A program made the translations under genes and the position numbers. From positions 1 to 27,548 of the forward strand of contig JALXFQ010000067.1 in the NCBI GenBank assembly GCA_027067235.1: a stretch of 27,548 nucleotides of DNA, written 5' to 3'. Shown in pieces: positions 11,201-27,548 of this stretch. Under the pieces are notes generated by a model. The model ran no database searches and had not been told where the DNA came from. It was given only the letters and a program-made list of their open reading frames with translations. How positions within the stretch are numbered: the first letter of the stretch is position 1; each line of letters begins with the position of its first letter. The stretch comes from Gammaproteobacteria bacterium (lineage in GTDB: Bacteria > Pseudomonadota > Gammaproteobacteria > QOAV01).

Positions 11201-14200
11201 CGGTTCATCCCCACAGGCGTGGGGAACGCTCGATCTGGTGTTTTACAGCAAATTCGCGCAGCGGTTCATCCCCACAGGCGTGGGGAACGCGCGTCCGCGC
11301 TGCGCTGGTCGCGATATTTGCGCGGTTCATCCCCACAGGCGTGGGGAACGCCATGCGACCATAGGTGGCGAGCTGGATCGTCTCGGTTCATCCCCACAGG
11401 CGTGGGGAACGCCAGTTCGTCCGCTTCGGCGCGGATGCTCCCACCGGTTCATCCCCACAGGCGTGGGGAACGCATCACCGTACCAGATGCCAGAACCTTG
11501 ACCGGCGGTTCATCCCCACAGGCGTGGGGAACGCCGAGGGGTTCGACGGCGACTTTTTGCAGGAATCGGTTCATCCCCACAGGCGTGGGGAACGCTTGTT
11601 GTTAATCTGGAAATAGAAGGCGCTGAACGGTTCATCCCCACAGGCGTGGGGAACGCGCCGCGATAGTGACAAGCTCGGGATAAACCATCGGTTCATCCCC
11701 ACAGGCGTGGGGAACGCGGCTGTCTGGTACTGATGCAATAGAAGCATAACGGTTCATCCCCACAGGCGTGGGGAACGCCGCACGGAGAAAGGCCGACAGG
11801 CGCGACGATACGGTTCATCCCCACAGGCGTGGGGAACGCGCCAGCTGATCCGGCTGGCGTTCCGGGTGCGGCCGGTTCATCCCCACAGGCGTGGGGAACG
11901 CCTAACAACGAACCCGTTTTTTTCCAGGAATCTCGGTTCATCCCCACAGGCGTGGGGAACGCCGACGCCCGTCTGGACGCCGCCTCCGCCACCACGGTTC
12001 ATCCCCACAGGCGTGGGGAACGCAGTTTGCAAAATACGACTGGCACCGCATCCGGCGGTTCATCCCCACAGGCGTGGGGAACGCGAAAACATCGCCGAAA
12101 AGGCCATGCTGAAAGGCGGTTCATCCCCACAGGCGTGGGGAACGCTACGACAAGGCGCTGCGCAAGGTCGCCGGTCGCGGTTCATCCCCACAGGCGTGGG
12201 GAACGCACCGGGATCGAATGCCTCAACGCGATATTTACCGGTTCATCCCCACAGGCGTGGGGAACGCGAATGTCAAATATGGCCAAGTCAAATGCGTGAC
12301 GGTTCATCCCCACAGGCGTGGGGAACGCAAACAGTTCACGCGCCCACGCTGGATGCTGGACGGTTCATCCCCACAGGCGTGGGGAACGCTGCTCATCAGT
12401 GTTTTCGGAGGACTGGCGGCGCGGTTCATCCCCACAGGCGTGGGGAACGCAACACTTGTTTAATTAGTGGTTTCTTATCAATGCGGTTCATCCCCACAGG
12501 CGTGGGGAACGCTTCAAGCTTCGCCATTACCTGTCACTCCTCATCGGTTCATCCCCACAGGCGTGGGGAACGCGACATCATCATGCTTTTGCCCTGTTTC
12601 AGTATCGGTTCATCCCCACAGGCGTGGGGAACGCACGACCGAGAACTACCGTTTACGCATGGACGCCGGTTCATCCCCACAGGCGTGGGGAACGCTTTTC
12701 AGCCAGCGCCTTTTTCTCTTCCAACAGCGGTTCATCCCCACAGGCGTGGGGAACGCCTCAGCCTATCTGGGTGAATCAGTTTACTCCGCGGTTCATCCCC
12801 ACAGGCGTGGGGAACGCGACCGCGTCAACAGTCGCCAACGGAGAATTGAGGGTTCATCCCCACAGGCGTGGGGAACGCCCTTGTTTCGTTCCTGCTATTC
12901 TAGCATGTCGCGGTTCATCCCCACAGGCGTGGGGAACGCGGTAGAGACCGGGTTGCACACTGGCCTGAAACTGGTTCATCCCCACAGGCGTGGGGAACGC
13001 TAATAACCATCCTGAATGGGTGGATGCTGTTTCGGTTCATCCCCACAGGCGTGGGGAACGCAAGCCGCCGAGGACGAAAAGACGAAGGAGCTGCGGTTCA
13101 TCCCCACAGGCGTGGGGAACGCTTGGGATGACGTTCGCACCTTTGACGGACGTCCGGTTCATCCCCACAGGCGTGGGGAACGCTAATCAATCGGGGCTTT
13201 TTTTGCAACCTACGTCGGTTCATCCCCACAGGCGTGGGGAACGCCACCTGATCCCTGAGAACACGATGGACAGAATCGGTTCATCCCCACAGGCGTGGGG
13301 AACGCCTGTGCGTGTCCCGGAGGTTCCAAAGATCCCGCGGTTCATCCCCACAGGCGTGGGGAACGCGCCAACTCCATTGACCCGTCGCCTGTTTCCAACG
13401 GTTCATCCCCACAGGCGTGGGGAACGCTGATACTGTGGCTCGACGACGTGCCGCATGATCGGTTCATCCCCACAGGCGTGGGGAACGCAACCAATGATGT
13501 CTCCGGTGGTGCCAATGTTACGGTTCATCCCCACAGGCGTGGGGAACGCCTGCATTTGAGAGAGTGCCATAAGATTTTATCCGGTTCATCCCCACAGGCG
13601 TGGGGAACGCTTTGCCGCCAGCGCCTTGATGTAGTCAGACCACGGTTCATCCCCACAGGCGTGGGGAACGCTTACCGCCGCCAGAACCCTGACTACCGGA
13701 ACCCGGTTCATCCCCACAGGCGTGGGGAACGCCCCTTTTTCCATGTAAAGCGCATGCGCACTATCGGTTCATCCCCACAGGCGTGGGGAACGCGTCCTCG
13801 GCGGCTTCGGCCTGTTTTTTGATGGCGGTTCATCCCCACAGGCGTGGGGAACGCGAGGATGAGCGCTAAATACTGGCGCAAAAAATCGGTTCATCCCCAC
13901 AGGCGTGGGGAACGCGGGATATTCGCCAGATCATTTGCCGCCAGCGCCGGTTCATCCCCACAGGCGTGGGGAACGCGCGTATCGAGACCACCATGCAGGT
14001 TGACTACACCGGTTCATCCCCACAGGCGTGGGGAACGCGCTTCTCTCATCCACTGGCTGCGAGTTTTGACCGGTTCATCCCCACAGGCGTGGGGAACGCG
14101 GCATTTTTATCCTTGACAGTTATAACAATTACGGTTCATCCCCACAGGCGTGGGGAACGCTTGAGAAAACGCGCCGAGGATTGAAGCGTCTGCGGTTCAT

Positions 14201-16295
14201 CCCCACAGGCGTGGGGAACGCCCTTTCTGCCGCACGCTGCGCCTTCCGGCGCTCGGTTCATCCCCACAGGCGTGGGGAACGCGGAGTATTCCGACACCGA
14301 CCGGAACGGTAGTTCGGTTCATCCCCACAGGCGTGGGGAACGCGCAAGTACCGCAACCTGCCTGAAGATTCAATACGGTTCATCCCCACAGGCGTGGGGA
14401 ACGCATTTCATGTTGATGATGATGGCCGGGCCAAAGCGGTTCATCCCCACAGGCGTGGGGAACGCTGTTAGAGTTCGGTCAATTTGGTTGTTTTAGGCGG
14501 TTCATCCCCACAGGCGTGGGGAACGCGCGCCAGTTCTGCGCGCCGGGCCACATCGAACCGGTTCATCCCCACAGGCGTGGGGAACGCGTCGCCTTCGTAG
14601 ATCAGGCGCTTGCAGGTGGCGGTTCATCCCCACAGGCGTGGGGAACGCGCTCTTTTTCGGTTTCGAGTGAGCGGATTACCGGTTCATCCCCACAGGCGTG
14701 GGGAACGCAAAATAGATTGCCCGCGCGTCTGGTGGAATCGCGGTTCATCCCCACAGGCGTGGGGAACGCCGTTTGCTGATGGCGACAGCCAGCTGATCCG
14801 GCGGTTCATCCCCACAGGCGTGGGGAACGCATGACCATAATCATAGACATCGCGCTGGTACTGCGGTTCATCCCCACAGGCGTGGGGAACGCGGTAATGG
14901 CGAAGTTGACAGACAAGCAAAAAGCGGTTCATCCCCACAGGCGTGGGGAACGCTATTGTAAAATCAGCAAATTCAAATACACACTCGGTTCATCCCCACA
15001 GGCGTGGGGAACGCCGCAACATTTTTGTACGTTTCCGGGTATTTTACGGTTCATCCCCACAGGCGTGGGGAACGCTGCCCCGATCTCCTCAGATCAGCAA
15101 TGGCAGACGGTTCATCCCCACAGGCGTGGGGAACGCATCCTCTGCCGCTGGCGGGGATGGTTACTGATCGGTTCATCCCCACAGGCGTGGGGAACGCATG
15201 TTGATTCAATGACTTGGTTCCTATCAAGCCGGTTCATCCCCACAGGCGTGGGGAACGCATCCGCCTGACTACCGAAGGGTTTGATGGCGACGGTTCATCC
15301 CCACAGGCGTGGGGAACGCCGGCACGGATGCGGTGGCGGTGTGCGAGGAGGCGGTTCATCCCCACAGGCGTGGGGAACGCCGTCGCGCCGGTTATGTGGG
15401 CGATTCGTTCATCGGTTCATCCCCACAGGCGTGGGGAACGCATCACCGTGCCGGAGGCCAACACTTTGACCGGCGGTTCATCCCCACAGGCGTGGGGAAC
15501 GCGTACAGCAGAGGATTACGCGGACGCTGTTGAGCGGTTCATCCCCACAGGCGTGGGGAACGCACTGGAACAACCGTTGCAATTAGGGCAAAAAACGGTT
15601 CATCCCCACAGGCGTGGGGAACGCTTCGTATCGTGTCGGCCCCAGCCACGCCCTGACGGTTCATCCCCACAGGCGTGGGGAACGCCTGATTATTGACGTT
15701 GTAATATACGTCTCCTGCGGTTCATCCCCACAGGCGTGGGGAACGCGAAACCATGCAGCCGCGTCCCACGCAGCAGGCGGGTTCATCCCCACAGGCGTGG
15801 GGAACGCCCACTCCGGGACGGGCGTGTCGAGCGGATTCACGGTTCATCCCCACAGGCGTGGGGAACGCACCGGGGAACCGAGGTTGTCATCCTCGGCCAG
15901 CGGTTCATCCCCACAGGCGTGGGGAACGCGCGCACATCATCGCAGGCGCGCAGCGGCCCGACGGTTCATCCCCACAGGCGTGGGGAACGCCCGGAGACGA
16001 CGAGAATACCGCCATCGAATTCCGGTTCATCCCCACAGGCGTGGGGAACGCTCGCCAATCACCAGCCAAAAAAAGTCCCATTCCGGTTCATCCCCACAGG
16101 CGTGGGGAACGCATACTGGCCCTTGACTTCGCGCCAGACGTGGACGGTTCATCCCCACAGGCGTGGGGAACGCTGGGCCATTCCCTCCACTCCAAAGGAC
16201 ATTAACGGTTCATCCCCACAGGCGTGGGGAACGCGCGACGCTCGCGCTCTTTGTCCACTAGGCGGCCGGTTCATCCCCACAGGCGTGGGGAACGC
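11201..16295 (-). CRISPR. Type I-E CRISPR array, 84 repeats / 83 spacers
   Basis: 29-nt repeat GCGTTCCCCACGCCTGTGGGGATGAACCG (transcribed sense) with a CCCCAC/GTGGGG stem. Hand count: 78 spacers of 32 nt, four of 33, one of 31. Leader lies on the cas2 side. Spacers here are numbered S1 from the low-coordinate (oldest) end. Confidence 0.99.
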
Positions 16296-16420
16296 ACCAA
16301 TCGTAACCGATTGGTTTTACTCTGAAAATAGAGCAGAGAAAATTCTACCGATTTTTTCCGCTAAAAATCCGGCGATCTTTTCTGCTCCAAACAGTACTTT
16401 CGAATTGTAAAAGAGCGTGG
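16296..16420 (-). promoter_or_regulatory. CRISPR leader
   Basis: AT-rich gap between cas2 and the first repeat; contains AAAATCGGTAGAATTTT, resembling the GGTAGA motif of I-E leaders, about 50 nt from the repeat. Confidence 0.85.
16304..16316 (-). promoter_or_regulatory. IHF-like site in the leader
   Basis: AACCAATCGGTTA has one mismatch to WATCAANNNNTTR, at -9 to -21 from the first repeat, where IHF binds in E. coli I-E leaders. Confidence 0.6.
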
Positions 16421-17646
<1,226 letters not shown>

Positions 17647-17661
17647 GGGAAGACAACGCCG

Positions 17662-17943
17662 TCACGCTGCCCGATGAATGTGCATATCGACACGGAAACC
17701 CGCCTGCGACAGCATGTTGACCAGCCGATCCACGGTACATTTGTCGATACGCCCCTTGATGACGTCATTAAGCCGGGGTTGCGTCGTACCCAGACGTTGC
17801 GCCGCTTCAGTCTGGGTCAAACCGGAGTGTTCCACATACTCGGCGATCTTCATCATCAACGCGGAGCGCAGTTTCAGGTTTTCCGCCAGAACGACATCGT
17901 CTTCCAACGCATCCCATACGCTTTCATATTGCTTGTCAGTCAT
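17662..17943 (-). CDS. higA: XRE/HigA-like HTH antitoxin
   Basis: 93 aa; SVWDALED...ENLKLRSALM...LTQTEAAQRLGTTQPRLNDVIKGRI helix-turn-helix; ATGA overlap with the upstream toxin. Confidence 0.8.
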   Translation of the reverse strand: MTDKQYESVWDALEDDVVLAENLKLRSALMMKIAEYVEHSGLTQTEAAQRLGTTQPRLNDVIKGRIDKCTVDRLVNMLSQAGFRVDMHIHRAA

Positions 17944-18266
17944 TTTTCCAACCTCTGCGTTAATTGCCTCAACCGCCGCCGCGCCAGCTCGATATCCGGT
18001 TTTGATGTCTTTTGCGTTTTCTTTTGAAACGCATGGAGAACATGAACCTTGTCGCCAAATTTCGCGACATAAATCACGCGATACTGCATGCCCACCTGTA
18101 TTCCTATCTCGCTTACGCCAGCACCAATCGCAGAGAATGGCTTCCAGTTGAGCGGCTCCAACCCACGCTGAATACGATCAATCTCGTAACCTGCTCTCTG
18201 CCGGGCGTTATCTGGAAACGCGCGAATAACCGCCAGAGAATCTCCTTCAAAAGAAACTGATTTCAT
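17940..18266 (-). CDS. higB: RelE/HigB (Gp49-like) type II toxin
   Basis: 108 aa; F.GDSL..IR.FP..AR..AGY, YRVIYVAKF, VLHAFQKKTQKT...DIELAR; toxin-before-antitoxin order. Confidence 0.82.
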   Translation of the reverse strand: MKSVSFEGDSLAVIRAFPDNARQRAGYEIDRIQRGLEPLNWKPFSAIGAGVSEIGIQVGMQYRVIYVAKFGDKVHVLHAFQKKTQKTSKPDIELARRRLRQLTQRLEK

Positions 18267-18285
18267 CTTAAGCGCAATCCTTCGC

Positions 18286-18303
18286 TATATCAAGTTTGAT
18301 ATA
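18286..18303. promoter_or_regulatory. Palindromic operator candidate upstream of the TA module
   Basis: TATATCAA-GT-TTGATATA, perfect 8-bp arms, 19 bp before the higB start. Confidence 0.65.
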
Positions 18304-18312
18304 AACAGGAGT

Positions 18313-18996
18313 TCAAACCCGCCTGACCAGCATCAGGCCGCAGCCGAAGGCTTTGGAACGGCCAAAGCCCAGCTTTAACGCAGCTTGATAAGCCTCTGGC
18401 TCGGTCAGGGTCAGGCTGCCCTGAATGTCCAGGCTCGCGAACTGGCGTTTGTTGGCGTCTCCGGGTTTTCTCACTTTGTGGAACTGGTGGTTGGAAACCA
18501 GACAGTCGCCCGGTTGAAAGCCTTGTTTCTCGCCCTGTCTTTCCAGCCATTTTTTGGCGGCGTCGTGATGGATGACCGAGGGTGGCGGCCAGCTTTCTCC
18601 GCTCGGGTCATTTTTGCGGTATTCGTCGATGGCCGCCTCGATGATGTCACGGCGGATGCGCCGCTTGCTGTGATCGTCGGCCTTGCGGGTGACCACGGCA
18701 TTGACGCGAAGCTGGAATTGCAGGCGGTCGCCCGCCCGCAGGCGCGGCTCGAAAGGCTTGGTTTCGACGATCAGGCTTTCGTTTCCTTCCAGAGGGCGGC
18801 GCGCCGAAAGCAAATAGTAGAACGGCGGCTCGCCAGGCTTGTCCTCGCGCCGGTAGAGAAAGTCGCGCTGTTGATCGGGCGCATTGTCGAACAGACTCCA
18901 GATCATCTGGTGTTCACGGAACAGGTCAGCGGTGACGCCTCGCCGGCACTGACGGCGAATGCCCTCCCGGGTAAAGTGGATACGACTCAGATACAT
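18313..18996 (-). CDS. cas6e: Type I-E Cas6 (Cse3/CasE)
   Basis: YLSR...EHQMIWSLF, L..GDRLQFQLRVNAV, Gly-loop GFGRSKAFGCGLMLV. ATG 18996 or GTG 18999. Confidence 0.95.
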   Translation of the reverse strand: MYLSRIHFTREGIRRQCRRGVTADLFREHQMIWSLFDNAPDQQRDFLYRREDKPGEPPFYYLLSARRPLEGNESLIVETKPFEPRLRAGDRLQFQLRVNAVVTRKADDHSKRRIRRDIIEAAIDEYRKNDPSGESWPPPSVIHHDAAKKWLERQGEKQGFQPGDCLVSNHQFHKVRKPGDANKRQFASLDIQGSLTLTEPEAYQAALKLGFGRSKAFGCGLMLVRRV

Positions 18997-19700
18997 CACT
19001 CACCTCCCAGGCGGACGAATTCTTCGCGCGGCGCAAACTGCCAGCGTTGGCGGCTCAGGGGCTGGTCATAACGTGGCGTATGGAAGTCGTGATCCATGCC
19101 AGATTTCATGTCCGCTTCCCAGTAGTAGCGCGAGGATTTTCCCAGGAGTATCGCCAGCCAGGGGGCGACGCAATAGCTGTCCAGCGCCATTCTGAGATCG
19201 TGCGCGGGAATGACCTCCGGGTTGAGCGGCAATGCGGGCGGACAGGCCTTGCGTCCAAGGTAGAGTGGAAACACCGGTTCCAGTAGGGCGTCATGCAGGC
19301 GGTCCGGGCTGTAGCGTTCGTCCCCGCTGGTGACGGCGACGATGCTTACGGCATCCTGCCGATAGCTACGGAAAGAGAGCATGGTGCCGACCTTGGGTTC
19401 GCGCAGTTCGTCGCGCCGGGTCTGCAAGTGCTGTTGTTTTTTTGCCGATGGCGGTACCTGAATGGTGTGAAAATCCCGCAGGGCCAGGCCGGGCGCGGGC
19501 AGCTTGACGCCAAAGCGGCAAGCATGGCTCAAGGCCCGGTGTTCCGCTTCTTCGTCGCGGCGGATGCCAAGGGCCGCAGCCAGCAGACCCAGCAAGGCCG
19601 AGCGGCTGGGGTGGTCGTCACTGGGGCGCTCCTGCCCCACGGCCTGCCCGCCCCAGGCGGCCAGCGGCGCGTAGAGTTGAAAAACCAGATAGTCGTCCAT
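18996..19700 (-). CDS. cas5: Type I-E Cas5 (CasD)
   Basis: YLVFQLYAPLAAWG, PSRSALLGLLAAALGIRR, LRDFHT, LYLGRKACP. Confidence 0.95.
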   Translation of the reverse strand: MDDYLVFQLYAPLAAWGGQAVGQERPSDDHPSRSALLGLLAAALGIRRDEEAEHRALSHACRFGVKLPAPGLALRDFHTIQVPPSAKKQQHLQTRRDELREPKVGTMLSFRSYRQDAVSIVAVTSGDERYSPDRLHDALLEPVFPLYLGRKACPPALPLNPEVIPAHDLRMALDSYCVAPWLAILLGKSSRYYWEADMKSGMDHDFHTPRYDQPLSRQRWQFAPREEFVRLGGE

Positions 19701-19703
19701 GAC

Positions 19704-20747
19704 TCAGCCCGCCACGAAGTCGATGATGTCTTCGAGCTTATCGCCCTCGCCGGTATGGGCGTTCATGGCGCGCCGTTCGTCAGCGCAATCGCCATACATG
19801 CGGTCGAAGTTGTCGCGCTGTGTCTCCAACGCCTGGATCGCCTGCGCCATCAGGTCGTCGCTGCCGCCCACGGGTTTCAAGAAAGCCACCGACAGACTGC
19901 GGGGTTGCTGACTGCCTTTCTCCGCCAGCAGATAGGAGGTATAGGCGCGGGAAGCGAAACTGTTCTGCTTGCCGGTGGGCGCAACCTTGGCCGCCGCCTC
20001 GGTGAGCGCGGCGATGGCTTTGTTCGCCAGGTCTTCATCCCCTTGCAGGTTCTCCACCAGCCGGTCGCGGTCGATGCAGAGGTACTGGTAAAACACGCCA
20101 GAACTGAAGCCAGCATCGCCCATGTGTCCCGCGCCGGCGTCTTCTTCATGGGTATTGAGATCATCCACGGCGGTGAAGAAGTCGTCCTCGATCTTCACCT
20201 GATTGACGGTGACGGCGTGCGCCACCTGCGCGGCGGCCTCGACGTTGAACGCCGGACTGGAGGCCAGCATGCGGCCAAACAGCGCGATATCCACGGCTTT
20301 GGGTTTTTCACGAAGCAGCGCCAGTTCTTCCTTTTCGGGTTCCCGGTTCTCCGTTGCGAGCGTATCGGCCAACGCCATGACCGCTTGCCACTCCTCGGGA
20401 GAGACATGGGCAAGTTGCTCGATCTCCAGTGGATTTTCCTTTTTGACCTTGCCAAAAACAGCAGCGATGGCGGAGGCCCATTTTTCCGCGTCCTTTTCCT
20501 TGACGCCCGCATCGACCAGCTTTTTGTGTACTTCCACGCCCAGCCGCTTGGTGCGTGTGCCTTTGAACTCGCTCAAGGCATTCTCGAAGTGCTCTGAGGT
20601 ACGCCAGGCCCGCTTGAGGCTTTGCGAGGAAACCCGCAACCGCTCCGCGCCGCCAACGATGGCAGTCTTCGGTCGACCGAGATCATCCCGGTTGAGATTG
20701 GAAGGCGGATAGGCAGTGAGCAGATGCAGTTGGATGAATTGAGTCAT
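19704..20747 (-). CDS. cas7: Type I-E Cas7 (Cse4/CasC)
   Basis: FIQLHLLTAYPPSNLNRDDLGRPKT, RVSSQSLKRAWR, DIALFGRM, DFFTAVDDL, PTGKQNSFA. Confidence 0.97.
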   Translation of the reverse strand: MTQFIQLHLLTAYPPSNLNRDDLGRPKTAIVGGAERLRVSSQSLKRAWRTSEHFENALSEFKGTRTKRLGVEVHKKLVDAGVKEKDAEKWASAIAAVFGKVKKENPLEIEQLAHVSPEEWQAVMALADTLATENREPEKEELALLREKPKAVDIALFGRMLASSPAFNVEAAAQVAHAVTVNQVKIEDDFFTAVDDLNTHEEDAGAGHMGDAGFSSGVFYQYLCIDRDRLVENLQGDEDLANKAIAALTEAAAKVAPTGKQNSFASRAYTSYLLAEKGSQQPRSLSVAFLKPVGGSDDLMAQAIQALETQRDNFDRMYGDCADERRAMNAHTGEGDKLEDIIDFVAG

Positions 20748-20750
20748 GAT

Positions 20751-21308
20751 TTAAGCTCCTTTTGAGGTCGACTTGGCATTTGCCAGACTTTGAGGTTCGT
20801 AATAGCCACGCGCCATCCGGTACTGCCATTGGCGTGTGCCCCGGTAGCTGTCGGGCCAGCGCTGCTGGGCATGCCAATGCAGAATCTCATCGGCGAGTTG
20901 TATGGGGTCTGCCGTCTTGGCCAGCTGCATGATGGCGCGGCGCATGGTCTGATAGAAATCGTTAACGCTATTCGATGCCAGCAGACGTTGAAAACGCAGT
21001 TCGCTGAACAGCGGGCTGCCGTCATTAGTTTTGGTGCCGGGTTTGGGGCGCCCCAATAGTACGGCAGTCGGCTGGTCGCTGGGGTTTTCCACCCAGGCCA
21101 ACAGGCCGGCAATGAGCGCCAACCCTTCAGCATCACCCTTGGTTTTCTGGCACAACCGGAAATAGGCCGGCTCCAACATCACGGCATCGAGCTTGTCACA
21201 ACGGCGCAGGCGGGCGCGGTCACCACGGTGATTTTCGTCATGCAGTTCACTGTGCCATTCCCGGATGGCCTGCTGACGGTCTTCGTCTTTAAGTATGATG
21301 AAACACAT
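20751..21308 (-). CDS. cse2: Type I-E small subunit Cas11 (Cse2/CasB)
   Basis: W...RGDRARLRRC, FSELRFQRLL, RRAI, W...MARGYY; lies between cse1 and cas7. Confidence 0.9.
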   Translation of the reverse strand: MCFIILKDEDRQQAIREWHSELHDENHRGDRARLRRCDKLDAVMLEPAYFRLCQKTKGDAEGLALIAGLLAWVENPSDQPTAVLLGRPKPGTKTNDGSPLFSELRFQRLLASNSVNDFYQTMRRAIMQLAKTADPIQLADEILHWHAQQRWPDSYRGTRQWQYRMARGYYEPQSLANAKSTSKGA

Positions 21309-21320
21309 AAGCTACTCCAG

Positions 21321-22898
21321 TTAAGCCGCCAGGTTTTTCAGCGCGCGGCTGCCATTGAGATAGTGATTGAGCCCGCCCTTGCCATCGCGCGCCCTGACCA
21401 CGCGCTTGAGATCGCCACCTTCGCTCAGGCTGGACAGGGCGTACTGATCGAACAGTTTCCGGGCTTCGTCTTTCAGGGTGCCGGCCCACTTTTTTAACAA
21501 CGCGTCGATGGCGTCCTCGTCATCGAGTCGGTCAACCAGTTGCTGCAGCAAGTGGTAGAACGGCGCTTCTGTGGTGGACCAGAAGTTGGCGTCGATAAAG
21601 GACATGTCTCCCTTTGCGTCCTTCGGGCGATCGAACCAAGCGCTTTTCAAGGCGGACTTGAGGGTCTTGAGCGCATCGGTGGCGGCTTCGATCATTCTCT
21701 GTGCATACTCGGCAATGTCATCCCGCTCGTCTTGATCGAGATTGAACAGCGGCATTTCGGCTTCGTACCAGCAACGCGCCTTCATATTGTCCATGTCATA
21801 GCCGAATGCCCACAGGCGGGGGGCGAAATCCAGCTCGGGCATGCGGCGCTGCCGATCGTCATAACAACGCACGACCAGCGCGGGAGACCGGGTGAGCTTG
21901 CCTTGCTGGGCGGTGACCGCCAGCCCCAGCCAGTGGCGATACCCCAGGCCGCCCGGTTGCGCCTTGATGGAAAGGGGCTCCTTGTCCGCTTCGAGAACAT
22001 AAGGGGTCAAGGGGTGCTGCCAGTGGCCCGCGTAATTGATGCCGTAGTTTTTGGTGAGGTAACGATTCACCAGGCTGGAAGCGGCTTCACCGGTGAGGTC
22101 GCAGTGCCCCTCATGGTCCAATGGCAGCAGGCGCATGCGCCGGGGCATGGACCAATACACCTGCAAGGGGTGGGCGTGTTGAGGATAAGTTTCCATCCCC
22201 TTCTTTTCGCTGGTGCGGGTTAGAGCCAACCACGGGAAGATTTTTCCAATGGCGTCATTTTCATGGTCGCCGGGCGCTTGCACCAACTCGTCGCGGGTCA
22301 ACACATTGAGCCACAGACGCCGCCACAGGCAATCGCCCTCGCCGTTCTCCGGTGGCAGCACCAGCGTGGTCAGGGGTCCGCCGCCACGCACCGAAACGCG
22401 GTGGCCCACGCCCCCGGATGGTGCATTGATCTGCAGAGTGAACAGCGCCAGGGCGGCCATCTCCGGCGATAGTTTCTCGATGCCGCCGCGCTTGATGAAA
22501 TGATCCTGGTTGTCGCGCAGGGTTTTGCCGCCCGGCGCTTCGACGAACAAAGCGGCGATTTCTTTTTCTTCGCCCTCATCCAGTGTCAGATCCTGCATGA
22601 AGGCCGGTTCGCCGATGGCCGAGAAGATTTCGAAGGCCCGTTCGTAAGGGGCGAAGGCTTGATCCAGGGTTTCCGCATCGGGCGGTTCTCGCCACCAGCG
22701 CCGCCATTCCCTGAGGTTTTCCGGTGCGAATGCGGTCTGTAGCAGACCAATGAGGAACTGGTAGAGGGCGCCGCGAAAATCGGCGCGAGGGGCTGATATA
22801 TCAACAATATCCTCGCATCCCAAGTCTGAGACAGAAACAGCCTCGTGATTTCCGTCCCGCATGGAGACGTTAATCCATTTCAGTTTCAACAGGTTCAT
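21321..22898 (-). CDS. cse1: Type I-E large subunit Cas8e (Cse1/CasA)
   Basis: MNLL..WI, RADFRGALYQFLIGLLQ, QINAPSGGVGHRVSVRGGGPLTT, HPLTPY, GYDMDNMKARCW. ATG 22898 is 9 nt after GGAG (ORF track extends to 22937). Confidence 0.95.
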   Translation of the reverse strand: MNLLKLKWINVSMRDGNHEAVSVSDLGCEDIVDISAPRADFRGALYQFLIGLLQTAFAPENLREWRRWWREPPDAETLDQAFAPYERAFEIFSAIGEPAFMQDLTLDEGEEKEIAALFVEAPGGKTLRDNQDHFIKRGGIEKLSPEMAALALFTLQINAPSGGVGHRVSVRGGGPLTTLVLPPENGEGDCLWRRLWLNVLTRDELVQAPGDHENDAIGKIFPWLALTRTSEKKGMETYPQHAHPLQVYWSMPRRMRLLPLDHEGHCDLTGEAASSLVNRYLTKNYGINYAGHWQHPLTPYVLEADKEPLSIKAQPGGLGYRHWLGLAVTAQQGKLTRSPALVVRCYDDRQRRMPELDFAPRLWAFGYDMDNMKARCWYEAEMPLFNLDQDERDDIAEYAQRMIEAATDALKTLKSALKSAWFDRPKDAKGDMSFIDANFWSTTEAPFYHLLQQLVDRLDDEDAIDALLKKWAGTLKDEARKLFDQYALSSLSEGGDLKRVVRARDGKGGLNHYLNGSRALKNLAA

Positions 22899-23017
22899 CT
22901 GCATGATCTCCGGAGGATTTGTAATCGAATTCGACATGGAACCAACGACCCAATCGAAGCATGAATCGTATAAAAATATTGCGCATCACCAGTTCTCGAT
23001 ATATCATAAATGAGAGC

Positions 23018-23047
23018 ATGATAAAGTATAAACGGTTTGTGTATCAA
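23018..23047 (-). promoter_or_regulatory. Predicted sigma70 promoter of the cse1 (Cascade) operon
   Basis: TTGATA (23047-23042), 18-nt spacer, TATCAT (23023-23018). Confidence 0.55.
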
Positions 23048-23071: not shown

Positions 23072-23149
23072 GAGTTCCCCACACTTGTGGGGATGAACCG
23101 GTATACACGGTTTGCGGAAACTACTCCCCACATTCGTGGGGCTGTGAGA
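23072..23149 (+). CRISPR. Antisense CRISPR mini-array, CreR/CreA-like regulatory crRNA candidate
   Basis: Repeat 1 GAGTTCCCCACACTTGTGGGGATGAACCG (23072-23100, 26/29 to the main repeat); 20-nt spacer GTATACACGGTTTGCGGAAA; degenerate repeat 2 (23121-23149) keeps the stem CCCCAC-ATTC-GTGGGG. Confidence 0.85.
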
Positions 23150-25913: not shown

Positions 25914-26510
25914 TCACGACTTGTACACAACATAACCCGGAAGTTGTGATTCGTCCCGCGCGCAGACGTCGAACGGGCCTTCGGAGAGCCAGCGTCGGCG
26001 GGTGTTTTCGCTGAGGAGGCGCGGGCGGGCGGCTTTTTCGGTGCTGTATTTGCCCAGATAGTCTTCCGCGTCCGGTTGCTGGTTTTCGGCGTCCGCCCAC
26101 TGCGGCAGGCCTTGCAGGGGGATAAGGATGGCGAAGCGCATCCGCTCCCACGGGTTGGCGGCGTCGATGCGGCGGGTGAGTCGGGCTTCGAGGGGGACGC
26201 CGGCGTCCATGAGCTGGGCGACGGCGGCGTTGTCGCGCATGGGAACGTAGCCGAGTTTGTGTTGTTTCCACCAGATTTCCACGGCGCGGCGGTCGTGGGG
26301 GTTGGTTTTGTCTCGCTTGAGGGTCAGCGGCGCGCCGGGCGGGATGTTTTTCCAGACGGTTTCGCCGTCGTAGTATTGAAACCCGGCGATGGCGGAGACT
26401 TGCAGCAGGGCGATGCGATGATCACCCCCGGTCTTTGCGCTGGCCTTGTTTGTGGTGATGCCAACCGCGCTTACGGCGGCAATTTGCTTGAGGAAATGAC
26501 GACGTTTCAT
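25914..26510 (-). CDS. HIRAN-domain protein with twin-arginine-like N-terminus
   Basis: IAGFQYY...LTLKRDKTNPHDRRAV...KLGYVP..DNAAVAQLMD HIRAN signature; MKRRHFLK...ASA N-terminus; GGGAG RBS. Confidence 0.85.
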   Translation of the reverse strand: MKRRHFLKQIAAVSAVGITTNKASAKTGGDHRIALLQVSAIAGFQYYDGETVWKNIPPGAPLTLKRDKTNPHDRRAVEIWWKQHKLGYVPMRDNAAVAQLMDAGVPLEARLTRRIDAANPWERMRFAILIPLQGLPQWADAENQQPDAEDYLGKYSTEKAARPRLLSENTRRRWLSEGPFDVCARDESQLPGYVVYKS

Positions 26511-26564
26511 GTTGGCGGCTCCCTGTCGTTGGTTTTCTAAGAACCAACACGATAGCGAAGCCGC

Positions 26565-26581
26565 GTATCATTCCCTGATAC
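26565..26581. promoter_or_regulatory. Inverted repeat, candidate WYL-regulator operator
   Basis: GTATCA-N5-TGATAC in the WYL-HIRAN gap, 10 bp upstream of a possible -10 box TATCGT (26554-26549). Confidence 0.4.
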
Positions 26582-26591
26582 TGCCAGATGA

Positions 26592-27548
26592 TTATTGGTA
26601 ATTTTTTTGCATCTGGCCCAGTTCGCGGCGAAGCGCCTCGCGCAGAACCGGCGGCGCCAGCACTTCCACATCCGCGCCGTATTTGAGGATGTCGCCAATC
26701 AGTTCCTCATGGCGGCGGTAGGGCAGGCGCAGTTCGTAGCCGCCGTCGTCCAGCCAGCGGCCGGTCTGCTCGGGATGCCAGGATTCGTTGGCCACCCAGC
26801 GGGCGCGGTGGGGGTTGAAACGCAGCACGGCGGTCTTGTCCGGCTCGCCGGCGAATATGCCGTAGGCGGTGGCGTAGTGGCGGTCGAGTTGTTCGTCGTC
26901 CATATCCAGCGCGGCCTCATCCAGCGCCTCGGCGGTTTCGATGCAATCCAGCGAGAACGTGCGCAGGGCCTCGCGCTGGTGGCACCAGGCGTCCAGATAC
27001 CAGTTGTCGCGGTAATGGGTCAGGCGCTGCGGTGAAAGCTCGCGCTGACTGGGTTGATCGGCGCTGCGGGCGTGGTAGGTGATGCGCAGGCGCTGGCGCT
27101 GCAGGACGGCGTGGGCGATACGCGGGAACCAGCGCGACTGTTCGCGCCGTCGCCCCATGGTCAGCAGCCGGATGCGGTTGAAATGCTGCCCGGCTCCGCC
27201 AATACGCTCCATCAGCTTGCGCAGCCGCCGCCGGAATGGCCGGGTTTCGGCGCGCACCAGCCCCGGCTCCAGATTGGACAACAGGCTGTCGGCCACCAGC
27301 AGGGCGTGGATTTCTTCCGGGTTGAGCCAGAGGCCGGGGACTTCCCGTTCGCCCGCGGCGCGGTCGATCACATAACCGTTATGCTCGCGGTCGTATTCCA
27401 CCGGCACGGAGAACGTATCACGCAGCGCGGCGATGGCGCGCTTGACGGTAACGCCCTTGCATTCCAGTTTTTGCTCAAGCTGTTGACGCGACACCGGATA
27501 CCGTCGGTTGGCCAACTCGCGATACAGAGTCATCACACGATCAAACTT
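26592..27548 (-). CDS. wHTH-WYL-WCX transcriptional regulator (5' end runs off the window)
   Basis: Frame is open to the edge (KFDRVMTLYR...); HTH VSRQQL..KLE...TVKRAI..LRD; WYL core SPQRLTHYRDNWYLDAWCH..EALRTFSLD; WCX tail ILKYGADVEVLAP. Confidence 0.92.
   Translation of the reverse strand, partial: KFDRVMTLYRELANRRYPVSRQQLEQKLECKGVTVKRAIAALRDTFSVPVEYDREHNGYVIDRAAGEREVPGLWLNPEEIHALLVADSLLSNLEPGLVRAETRPFRRRLRKLMERIGGAGQHFNRIRLLTMGRRREQSRWFPRIAHAVLQRQRLRITYHARSADQPSQRELSPQRLTHYRDNWYLDAWCHQREALRTFSLDCIETAEALDEAALDMDDEQLDRHYATAYGIFAGEPDKTAVLRFNPHRARWVANESWHPEQTGRWLDDGGYELRLPYRRHEELIGDILKYGADVEVLAPPVLREALRRELGQMQKNYQ

Follow-up and report, generated by a model that had tools for sequence, protein, structure and literature searches.

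A HigBA clade at the end of Cascade operons and an exchangeable toxin–antitoxin slot before cas1 in type I-E CRISPR loci

Why should a toxin–antitoxin (TA) pair lie between the last Cascade gene and cas1 of a type I-E CRISPR locus? The question arises from a 27,548-nt stretch of contig JALXFQ010000067.1 (Gammaproteobacteria bacterium, lineage QOAV01, assembly GCA_027067235.1), here called the window, which holds a complete type I-E locus with its features on the minus strand, in a source genome of 2.39 Mb. A HigBA-like pair separates its cas6e and cas1e genes; the window pair, toxin and antitoxin are this copy, and L-numbers denote the loci compared with it. An earlier note on this DNA had taken cas6e and cas1 to be normally adjacent in type I-E and had suggested that the pair gates spacer acquisition. 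That adjacency holds for Escherichia coli-like loci, whereas inserts at the junction are frequent in this class. The account we favour, at about even confidence, is that the pair is an autorepressed, co-transcribed maintenance cassette from a HigBA clade of Cascade ends, housed between cas6e and cas1 in a slot whose TA occupants are exchangeable. Direct support exists for the identities of the genes, the operator motif, the fidelity of the clade to CRISPR, the turnover of TA types in the slot, the duplicated cas6 tails and long purifying selection. The genes and gaps at the junction are as follows.

18313–18999, minus strand: cas6e, the final Cascade gene (TIGR01907)
18267–18312: 46-bp gap between cas6e and the toxin gene
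17940–18266, minus strand: HigB-like toxin of 108 residues with a RelE fold (Pfam Gp49, PF05973, E 8e-23)
17662–17943, minus strand: HigA-like XRE antitoxin of 93 residues (HTH_37, PF13744, E 3e-22; also HTH_3)
17647–17661, minus strand: 15-bp gap between the antitoxin gene and cas1
16729–17646, minus strand: cas1e, with a GTG start at 17646 (TIGR03638, E 8e-116)

Gene calls and profile matches agree with the earlier description of a co-oriented pair that ends 15 bp before the cas1 GTG. The toxin comes first in a single operon, the two reading frames overlapping by 4 bp, and an antitoxin homologue follows the toxin in 74 of 80 homologue loci. The HigBA-like identity proposed before is borne out by the Gp49 and HTH_37 matches and by HigB folds, and a toxin–antitoxin complex is predicted. 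A structure model of the toxin (predicted local distance difference test, pLDDT, 94.5) resembled most closely Streptococcus pneumoniae HigB (6AF4) and Mycobacterium tuberculosis HigB1 (7AWK) by Foldseek, and all eight matches at E ≤ 0.001 were HigB toxins; the antitoxin matched PDB 2A6C (E 3e-15). The predicted complex scored 0.88 against 0.01 for the best control, with at least 93% contact agreement between runs and a partner pLDDT of at least 90. The mark used for this score was reached by 116 of 157 solved pairs and by 2 of 215 mismatched pairs; since the window pair is like complexes already solved, that likeness alone may explain the pass. The toxin had no PADLOC match.

Published work is cited here from the consulted parts of each source. 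HigBA systems of the Gp49 group, namely those of S. pneumoniae (PDB 6AF3/6AF4), M. tuberculosis (HigB1 with its toxin–antitoxin–chaperone system, TAC; 7AWK, 7NBU; PMC9098466) and Vibrio cholerae (HigBA2, 5JAA), share with the window pair the toxin-first order, a RelE fold with a long C-terminal helix, an XRE antitoxin and most catalytic equivalents. The window pair differs in its low identity to them (~21–24%), in a glycine at the HigB1 R68 equivalent, in having no SecB chaperone and in sitting within CRISPR operons. That glycine, at toxin position 55, replaces an arginine that 57 of 59 and 116 of 119 homologues carry, and at position 52 a serine replaces an arginine present in 37 of the 39 nearest homologues; both arginines are kept in all nine other members of the clade described below. 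A profile alignment, itself weak (E 0.01), pairs position 55 with HigB1 R68, and changing R68 to alanine inhibited toxicity (PMC9098466). The remaining listed catalytic equivalents are intact (K42, E53, R63, F80, K82, Q85 and K86), the catalytic site being incomplete at Gly55. Because a near-invariant active-site arginine is missing, the window toxin is probably weakened. Gly55 may be a strain-specific change or an assembly error; codon 55 lies outside the coverage of independent contigs, and a 151-nt contig identical to 18155–18305 possibly comes from the same source. We discarded the idea of a faster-evolving window toxin: its end branch of 0.38 (antitoxin, 0.03) fell to 0.12 after closer relatives were added, leaving only the two residue changes.

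To place the pair among its relatives, we assembled 134 homologue loci, of which the 74 with an antitoxin at least 44% identical entered a quick, midpoint-rooted tree. The tree isolates a 10-member clade that includes the window pair (Shimodaira–Hasegawa-like approximate likelihood ratio support, SH-aLRT, 98), and nine of the ten lie at the end of a Cascade operon. Five (window, L005, L272, L273 and L278) belong to type I-E loci, where they fall between the end of Cascade and cas1. The other four are in type I-F loci (L222, L223, L224 and L279), where the pair lies between cas6f and the array, in one case with a Phd-VapC pair ahead of it. By contrast, none of the 124 homologue loci outside the clade had I-E or I-F cas matches and none of the 120 scanned had an array, within search flanks of 1.5–4 kb in which Cas types beyond I-E and I-F are visible only through their arrays. 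Four clade members chosen by toxin sequence alone were all cas-linked, against none of four non-clade matches from the same searches. In the I-F members cas1 is upstream and it is the array that follows the pair, so the conserved position of the clade is after Cascade, not before cas1. Under midpoint rooting these I-F members form one branch (support 97) nested among those of I-E, a pattern suggestive of one shift from I-E to I-F.

The arrangement is old. Among four I-E members synonymous divergence (dS) is 1.6 or saturated while nonsynonymous divergence (dN) is 0.10–0.26, values that place both genes under purifying selection; the antitoxin (dN 0.10–0.16 to its I-E relatives) is more conserved than the toxin (0.14–0.26). 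The best genome match of the window toxin is L005, a Sedimenticola metagenome-assembled genome in which cas6e is followed by the pair, a second HigBA pair and the start of cas1. The DNA match between the two spans the TA genes and the cas6e tail (17662–18369) at 69%. Recent transfer between them was considered and rejected: third codon positions show no greater similarity in the TA genes or cas6e tail than elsewhere. A further contig joins a cas6e end to a ~80%-alike antitoxin with 428 other letters between; it is a probable further clade member and stands outside our counts. No clade members were found among viral contigs. In the one other genome of the genus, 55% complete, cas1 had no match.

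The place before cas1 is itself a hotspot. In a class sample of 400 evenly drawn genomes, 27 others carried cas1e, and TA genes lay directly before cas1 in 10 of these 27 type I-E loci (one with its Cascade off the contig). Their types were Phd-PIN, Phd-ParE, MNT-HepT, Unstab-ParE, DUF433-DUF5615, an MNT pair, AbrB-PIN, a HipA fragment, RHH-PIN and another PIN pair. Elsewhere in the same loci no TA pair occurred at ~94 intra-Cascade junctions (one RhuM gene) or at the 27 cas1-cas2 junctions. Among 80 close cas1 relatives from metagenomes, 76 of them with context, TA genes preceded cas1 in 21 of the 76, or in 11 of 30 clusters at 90% identity; other genes at this place included KilA-N, Fic and DUF1016. 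All TA genes at the slot are co-oriented, and of 25 loci examined 19 have them ending within ~55 bp of cas1. In quick or FastTree cas1 trees, loci with TA genes are dispersed through the main cas1 clade, with at least 11 state changes. The earlier note had proposed a survey of cas6e–TA–cas1 arrangements; with TA genes directly before cas1 in 10 of 27 class loci and in none of the 29 loci sampled across the phylum, the slot is a hotspot of exchangeable TA genes within the class, not a general one.

Several other occupants of these junctions deserve mention. A conserved KilA-N gene of up to ~290 residues recurs in the slot (L086, L131, L151, L152, L193 and L206, the L193 call made by eye from likeness to L151 and L152), with remnants in L095, L101 and L107; the CreP toxin carries a related KilA C-terminal domain, which makes this gene notable. 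At L167:5417–8953 a CRISPR array with a boxA-led leader lies between cas6e and cas1, and at L181:1992–2682 a different Gp49/HTH_37 pair occupies the cas3-cas8e gap on the opposite strand.

How cassettes come and go is suggested by the sequences on either side. The 3′ tail of cas6e, a G-rich loop at ~18313–18370, is the conserved upstream anchor of the slot, and many unrelated vent-metagenome contigs match 18313–18370 at ~80–100% before running on into other sequence. A second cas6e tail lies in the junction of 6 of 41 insert-bearing loci and of none of 89 empty ones. In L120 and L128 the extra tail separates two stacked TA units, and in L138 it is fused behind the cas5 of a differently ordered Cascade. 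L278 and L280 have a different Cascade gene order, followed by a cas6e tail and then the clade pair; relative to the window, their cas1 is 82% identical, their cas7 36% and their cas6 24%. L093, by contrast, has a cas7 83% identical to that of the window, yet MNT-HepT in the slot. A decayed cas6f tail follows the antitoxin in L223 (read by eye), and the cas1 start is duplicated in L101. The simplest reading is that the unit of cas6 tail, TA pair and cas1 is exchanged by recombination at conserved anchors, which would swap effector modules too. Short palindromic elements resembling REP or MITE sequences were also seen between the duplicated cas6e tails, just after the Cascade end, in L135/L140 and L278.

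Turnover of this kind raises the alternative that TA-rich genomes simply drop pairs at tolerant junctions and that the window pair is decaying and useless to CRISPR. Slot occupancy does correlate with TA load, decayed remnants adjoin cas1 in L107, L132 and L158 (by eye), orphan antitoxins occur in L103, L140 and L141, the phylum sample lacks TA pairs, and the window toxin has lost two conserved arginines. We nevertheless think this explanation quite improbable. Clade members are cas-linked in nine of ten cases against none of 124 other homologues, selection has been purifying up to saturated dS, and in I-F the clade is found at the corresponding point behind cas6f, whose tail is unrelated in sequence. 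By a rough estimate, a few dozen TA systems spread over thousands of junctions would give 1–3% per junction, against the 37% seen.

Regulation of the pair centres on the 46-bp gap.

18286–18303: predicted HigA operator, an 8-2-8 inverted repeat; family motif, present in 10 of 10 clade members
18265–18293, minus strand: predicted promoter P2, with −35 TTGATA (18293–18288), 17 bp and −10 TAAGAT (18270–18265)

The operator reads TATATCAA-nn-TTGATATA. Described before as a perfect palindrome, it has perfect 8-bp arms around an unpaired 2-bp centre and is properly an interrupted inverted repeat. The genome holds 99 such 8-2-8 repeats in 2.39 Mb, or ~0.001 expected per 46-bp gap, and the window repeat exceeds chance. 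Its motif, TATATC-N6-GATATA (≤2 mismatches), precedes 53 of the 80 toxin homologues, whereas 100 shuffles gave a mean of 1.35 and a maximum of 5, and a matrix built from homologues ranks the window operator first genome-wide (27.0 bits; next site, 18.4). XRE antitoxins repress their own promoter at such inverted repeats. Because the motif is common to the toxin family, we read the repeat as a predicted autoregulatory operator and not as a CRISPR-specific element. As a candidate regulator of other cas promoters HigA was set aside, there being no strong site at the cas8e promoter (5.9 bits) or leader. A second, distant Gp49-family gene in the source genome (G000:C372:1607–1852) lacks a top-ranked operator site.

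The −35 of P2 lies within the right arm of the operator and its −10 overlaps the toxin ATG, so a P2 transcript would be without the toxin start codon. P2 is the only promoter-like site in the gap and is weak taken alone (4 sites in 11 kb against 3.3 expected). Its geometry, TTGA(T/G)A in the right arm with a −10-like hexamer 17 bp on, recurs in all ten clade members (16 bp in L278), and a looser version is found in 4 of 120 non-clade homologue loci. P2 is predicted to yield the antitoxin and downstream genes, without the toxin, under operator control. With the family motif, this overlap agrees with the earlier proposal of a TA operator at a TA promoter, as a prediction. The usual family layout, seen in 41 of 53 homologues, has a TTG −35 immediately ahead of the operator, a −10 that closes the right arm and an ATG ~8 nt further on. 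This −35 is absent from all nine cas-linked clade members and kept in L006, and clade members carry a Shine-Dalgarno-like sequence in place of the apparently leaderless start of the family. An extended −10 inside the operator, weakest in the window (TATAGC), could serve as an alternative toxin promoter without a −35. Within higBA no separate promoter ahead of cas1 is indicated (best score 7.0, background 5.5–9.0), and the 15-bp gap (17647–17661) shows no obvious ribosome-binding site.

Does the operator then control adaptation? The sequence scan found no terminator-like site between cas6e and the toxin gene, nor any between the antitoxin gene and cas1, in line with the earlier reading of the latter gap. 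Because the pair is co-oriented, tightly spaced and without a terminator, its co-transcription with cas1-cas2 is plausible, and no terminator-like site follows the antitoxin in eight of nine cas-linked clade members. A further element bears on how far such transcripts might run.

16406–16416, minus strand: boxA-like antitermination motif, 4 bp after the cas2 stop

Using a published boxA consensus (bioRxiv 10.64898/2026.07.09.737519), we found a like motif after cas2 in 46 of 75 related loci and 26–43 nt after the antitoxin in three of four I-F clade members. That boxA follows cas2 or the antitoxin suggests that the array is reached by read-through from upstream.

These features lend some weight to a dedicated gate, in which cas1-cas2 and the array are transcribed mainly from the operator-controlled promoter, HigA blocks read-through from Cascade, and turnover of the antitoxin under stress raises acquisition and CRISPR RNA (crRNA) supply. 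The operator overlaps the −35 of P2 in a geometry kept by all ten clade members, terminators after the antitoxin are nearly absent, boxA follows the antitoxin or cas2, and the antitoxin is more conserved than a toxin that, in the window, looks weakened. Even so, a dedicated gate is unlikely. Four of the nine CRISPR-linked clade members follow cas6f in I-F loci, where cas1 is upstream; at least seven other TA toxin or antitoxin types, with other regulators, occupy the same slot, and many loci have none; and no strong second operator lies at cas promoters or leader. Nothing appears to stop read-through from Cascade, and in E. coli Pcas8e transcribes the entire operon, including cas1-cas2 (PMC10011333, consulted in part). 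With no terminator after cas6e and read-through of that kind, cas1-cas2 need not depend on the TA promoter. Of the idea that the TA promoter drives cas1-cas2, then, co-transcription survives as plausible and the dedicated adaptation gate is not supported; stabilisation of the island, which the earlier note had offered as an alternative, fits at least as well.

The lost family −35 points to another possibility, linked to a second element upstream.

23072–23146, plus strand: CreR-like mini-array between cas3 and cas8e, with a repeat (23072–23100), a short spacer and a degenerate repeat

The mini-array spacer matches the cas8e promoter region (23026–23039) at 12 of 12 seed positions, with position 6 mismatched and the protospacer-adjacent motif (PAM) AAA; this is its best non-self match in the genome, and the mini-array is predicted to repress the cas8e promoter. 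Like the CreR-type regulatory mini-arrays of I-E loci described by Shmakov et al. (bioRxiv 10.1101/2023.03.03.530964, consulted in part), it lies in the cas3-cas8e gap on the opposite strand, has a degenerate distal repeat and shows a cas8e-promoter seed match with position 6 mismatched; it differs in its PAM (AAA versus AAG) and is an element separate from the TA pair. Cascade autorepression could indirectly set read-through into the toxin gene. Against the TA promoter region the mini-array spacer reaches a best seed run of 2, and the 83 array spacers a best run of 8, in the cas6e tail with PAM GCG. Control of the TA promoter in the manner of CreTA or CrePA was rejected, there being no mini-array or array spacer match in the window or its relatives. 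Mini-arrays occur in 6 of 19 TA-bearing I-E loci and in 7 of 70 without TA genes (counts not de-replicated), and in one of six other clade loci scanned. Separately, an I-F mini-array in L270 (G283) lies ~4 kb upstream of the operator and has a seed match of 15 positions close by; extra genes surround cas1 in this locus.

An abortive back-up could be built from such parts: the toxin would be expressed from Cascade read-through alone and P2 would supply antitoxin without toxin, so that an anti-CRISPR protein, by relieving CreR-type repression of Pcas8e, would bring about arrest. The loss of the family −35 from all nine cas-linked members and its presence in L006, the Shine-Dalgarno-like sequence in place of a leaderless start, and the mini-array aimed at the cas8e promoter agree with this. 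The extended −10 in the operator could nonetheless serve the toxin without a −35, read-through yields antitoxin along with toxin, mini-arrays are present in just the minority of loci counted above, no guide targets the TA promoter, and the window toxin is without Arg55. We consider such a back-up rather unlikely, and its status as a protein-antitoxin analogue of CrePA equally so. Also doubtful is a composite of these ideas, a domesticated HigBA switch at the Cascade end. Its gated internal promoter would feed the antitoxin and what lies downstream (cas1-cas2, a boxA-led array or both), with the toxin made by Cascade read-through alone; antitoxin turnover would raise acquisition and crRNA supply, de-repression by an anti-CRISPR would release the toxin, and the 3′ end of Cascade would serve such modules generally as a plug-in slot, refilled by recombination at the cas6 tail.

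The maintenance cassette remains the account we prefer. Under it, HigA likely represses the pair at the operator while the pair is likely transcribed with its cas neighbours. The junction would tolerate a co-oriented, terminator-free cassette because Cascade stoichiometry and downstream expression stay intact, and recombination at the conserved cas6 tail and within cas1 would exchange cassettes among CRISPR loci. Were the cassette lost, the toxin would be freed, which would favour retention of the downstream module; the pair probably persists as an addiction cassette travelling with cas1-cas2 and the array. Operator-bound HigA would also modulate transcription of cas1-cas2 and the array, incidentally and not in the role of a dedicated gate. 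With its toxin probably weakened, the window copy may now act mainly as repressor and promoter.

Several observations weigh against this account. A toxin weakened by Gly55 would not addict, and addiction is the role we infer for the pair. Nine of ten does not amount to nine independent events, since the members of the clade are related by descent and the later searches targeted their orders; the short flanks and the array-only view of other Cas types qualify the absence of cas links among the other homologue loci. L006 is a clade member without visible cas genes, on a contig with only 426 bp upstream, and L222 has a terminator-like hairpin after the antitoxin. As for the slot, the cas3-cas8 gap also holds a TA pair in 3 of 23 loci (Fisher p 0.058, computed on 3/24). 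The phylum sample has no TA pairs in its 29 loci (two KilA-N genes), and a distant cas1 clade has none in 16 rows, where gap reading frames at unlabelled divergent cas8/cas11 were partly scanned. Genomes with an occupied slot are, moreover, richer in TA genes generally (Phd plus ParE, 11.6 versus 5.2, p 0.02; per Mb, p 0.06).

The locus as a whole is of type I-E, with a full gene set (cas3, cas8e, cas11, cas7, cas5, cas6e, cas1e and cas2e) and an array of 29-bp repeats. On the minus strand the order is WYL, HIRAN, cas3, cas8e, cas11, cas7, cas5, cas6e, toxin, antitoxin, cas1e, cas2e and array.

18996–22937, minus strand: cas8e-cas11-cas7-cas5, the remainder of the Cascade operon
16421–16726, minus strand: cas2e (TIGR01873)
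11201–16295, minus strand: CRISPR array of 84 repeats of 29 bp and 83 spacers

Directly upstream of cas3 (25914–27536, minus strand) are genes for a WYL-WCX regulator and a HIRAN-domain protein, either of which may regulate the locus; the HIRAN-domain gene matches PDC-M03B in PADLOC (E 2e-13). Two spacer pairs, 11474–11505/15442–15473 and 11840–11872/14770–14801, apparently match the same or overlapping protospacers in variants of one target, which suggests repeated encounters with one invader family. Among the blast matches listed, no array spacer had a full self-match.

How does the window pair compare with TA genes already known from cas loci? Type II TA genes within type I cas loci, mostly on the cas strand, were reported by Zhang, Doak and Ye (PMC3936711), and TA cargo in such loci by Garrett et al. 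(PMC4390879). Shmakov et al. found TA genes enriched in I-B, I-D, I-E and I-F1 between mini-arrays and cas genes, and in Pectobacterium I-E loci they lie after cas2 or between cas3 and cse1 (PMC6963963). The window pair resembles this published cargo in being type II, on the cas strand like most of it, and variable between relatives; locus maintenance or dormancy coupling, considered here, was suggested there as well. It differs in place: the consulted parts of these papers put I-E cargo between cas3 and cas8e, after cas2 or between mini-array and cas genes, whereas the window pair is at the Cascade-cas1 junction. CreTA and CrePA (bioRxiv 10.1101/2024.01.05.574328; PMC12737573) likewise place a toxin gene at a preferred position in cas loci and are proposed to safeguard the CRISPR system. 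The CreTA antitoxin, however, is a crRNA-like RNA that guides Cascade to the toxin promoter, in the cas3-csy1 gap. Systems of this kind lack a protein antitoxin and are located in the cas3-cas8/csy1 or cas6-cas8 gap. The window pair has a protein antitoxin and follows cas6e, and because no guide matches the TA promoter it is not a CreTA or CrePA system. In the literature searched, which left most subscription journals uncovered, we found no report of a Cascade-cas1 slot, a CRISPR-restricted HigBA clade or cas6 tail duplications, and no paper came up when wording that places a gene between cas6e (or cse3, casE or cas6) and cas1 was sought; Fig. 4/S4 of Zhang et al. and Table S7 of Shmakov et al. 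may show such slot cases.

The window pair is real and no isolated accident, in a setting where TA pairs inside cas loci are already published. Such genes have been noted for more than a decade as scattered cargo, and the general hypothesis that immunity is coupled to dormancy (PMC3632139, PMC3506569) is short of defined cases with protein TA systems. What we offer is a TA clade nearly exclusive to CRISPR across two subtypes, a fixed position at the Cascade end with a predicted operator and promoter, and sequence scars that reveal how cassettes and effector modules swap. If a gate were true, it would tie spacer acquisition and crRNA supply to stress, for which we found no description in the literature searched. 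Natural variants, with toxins intact or weakened, in I-E or I-F, with or without a mini-array, and with another TA type or none at all, allow maintenance, gating and abortive back-up to be told apart.

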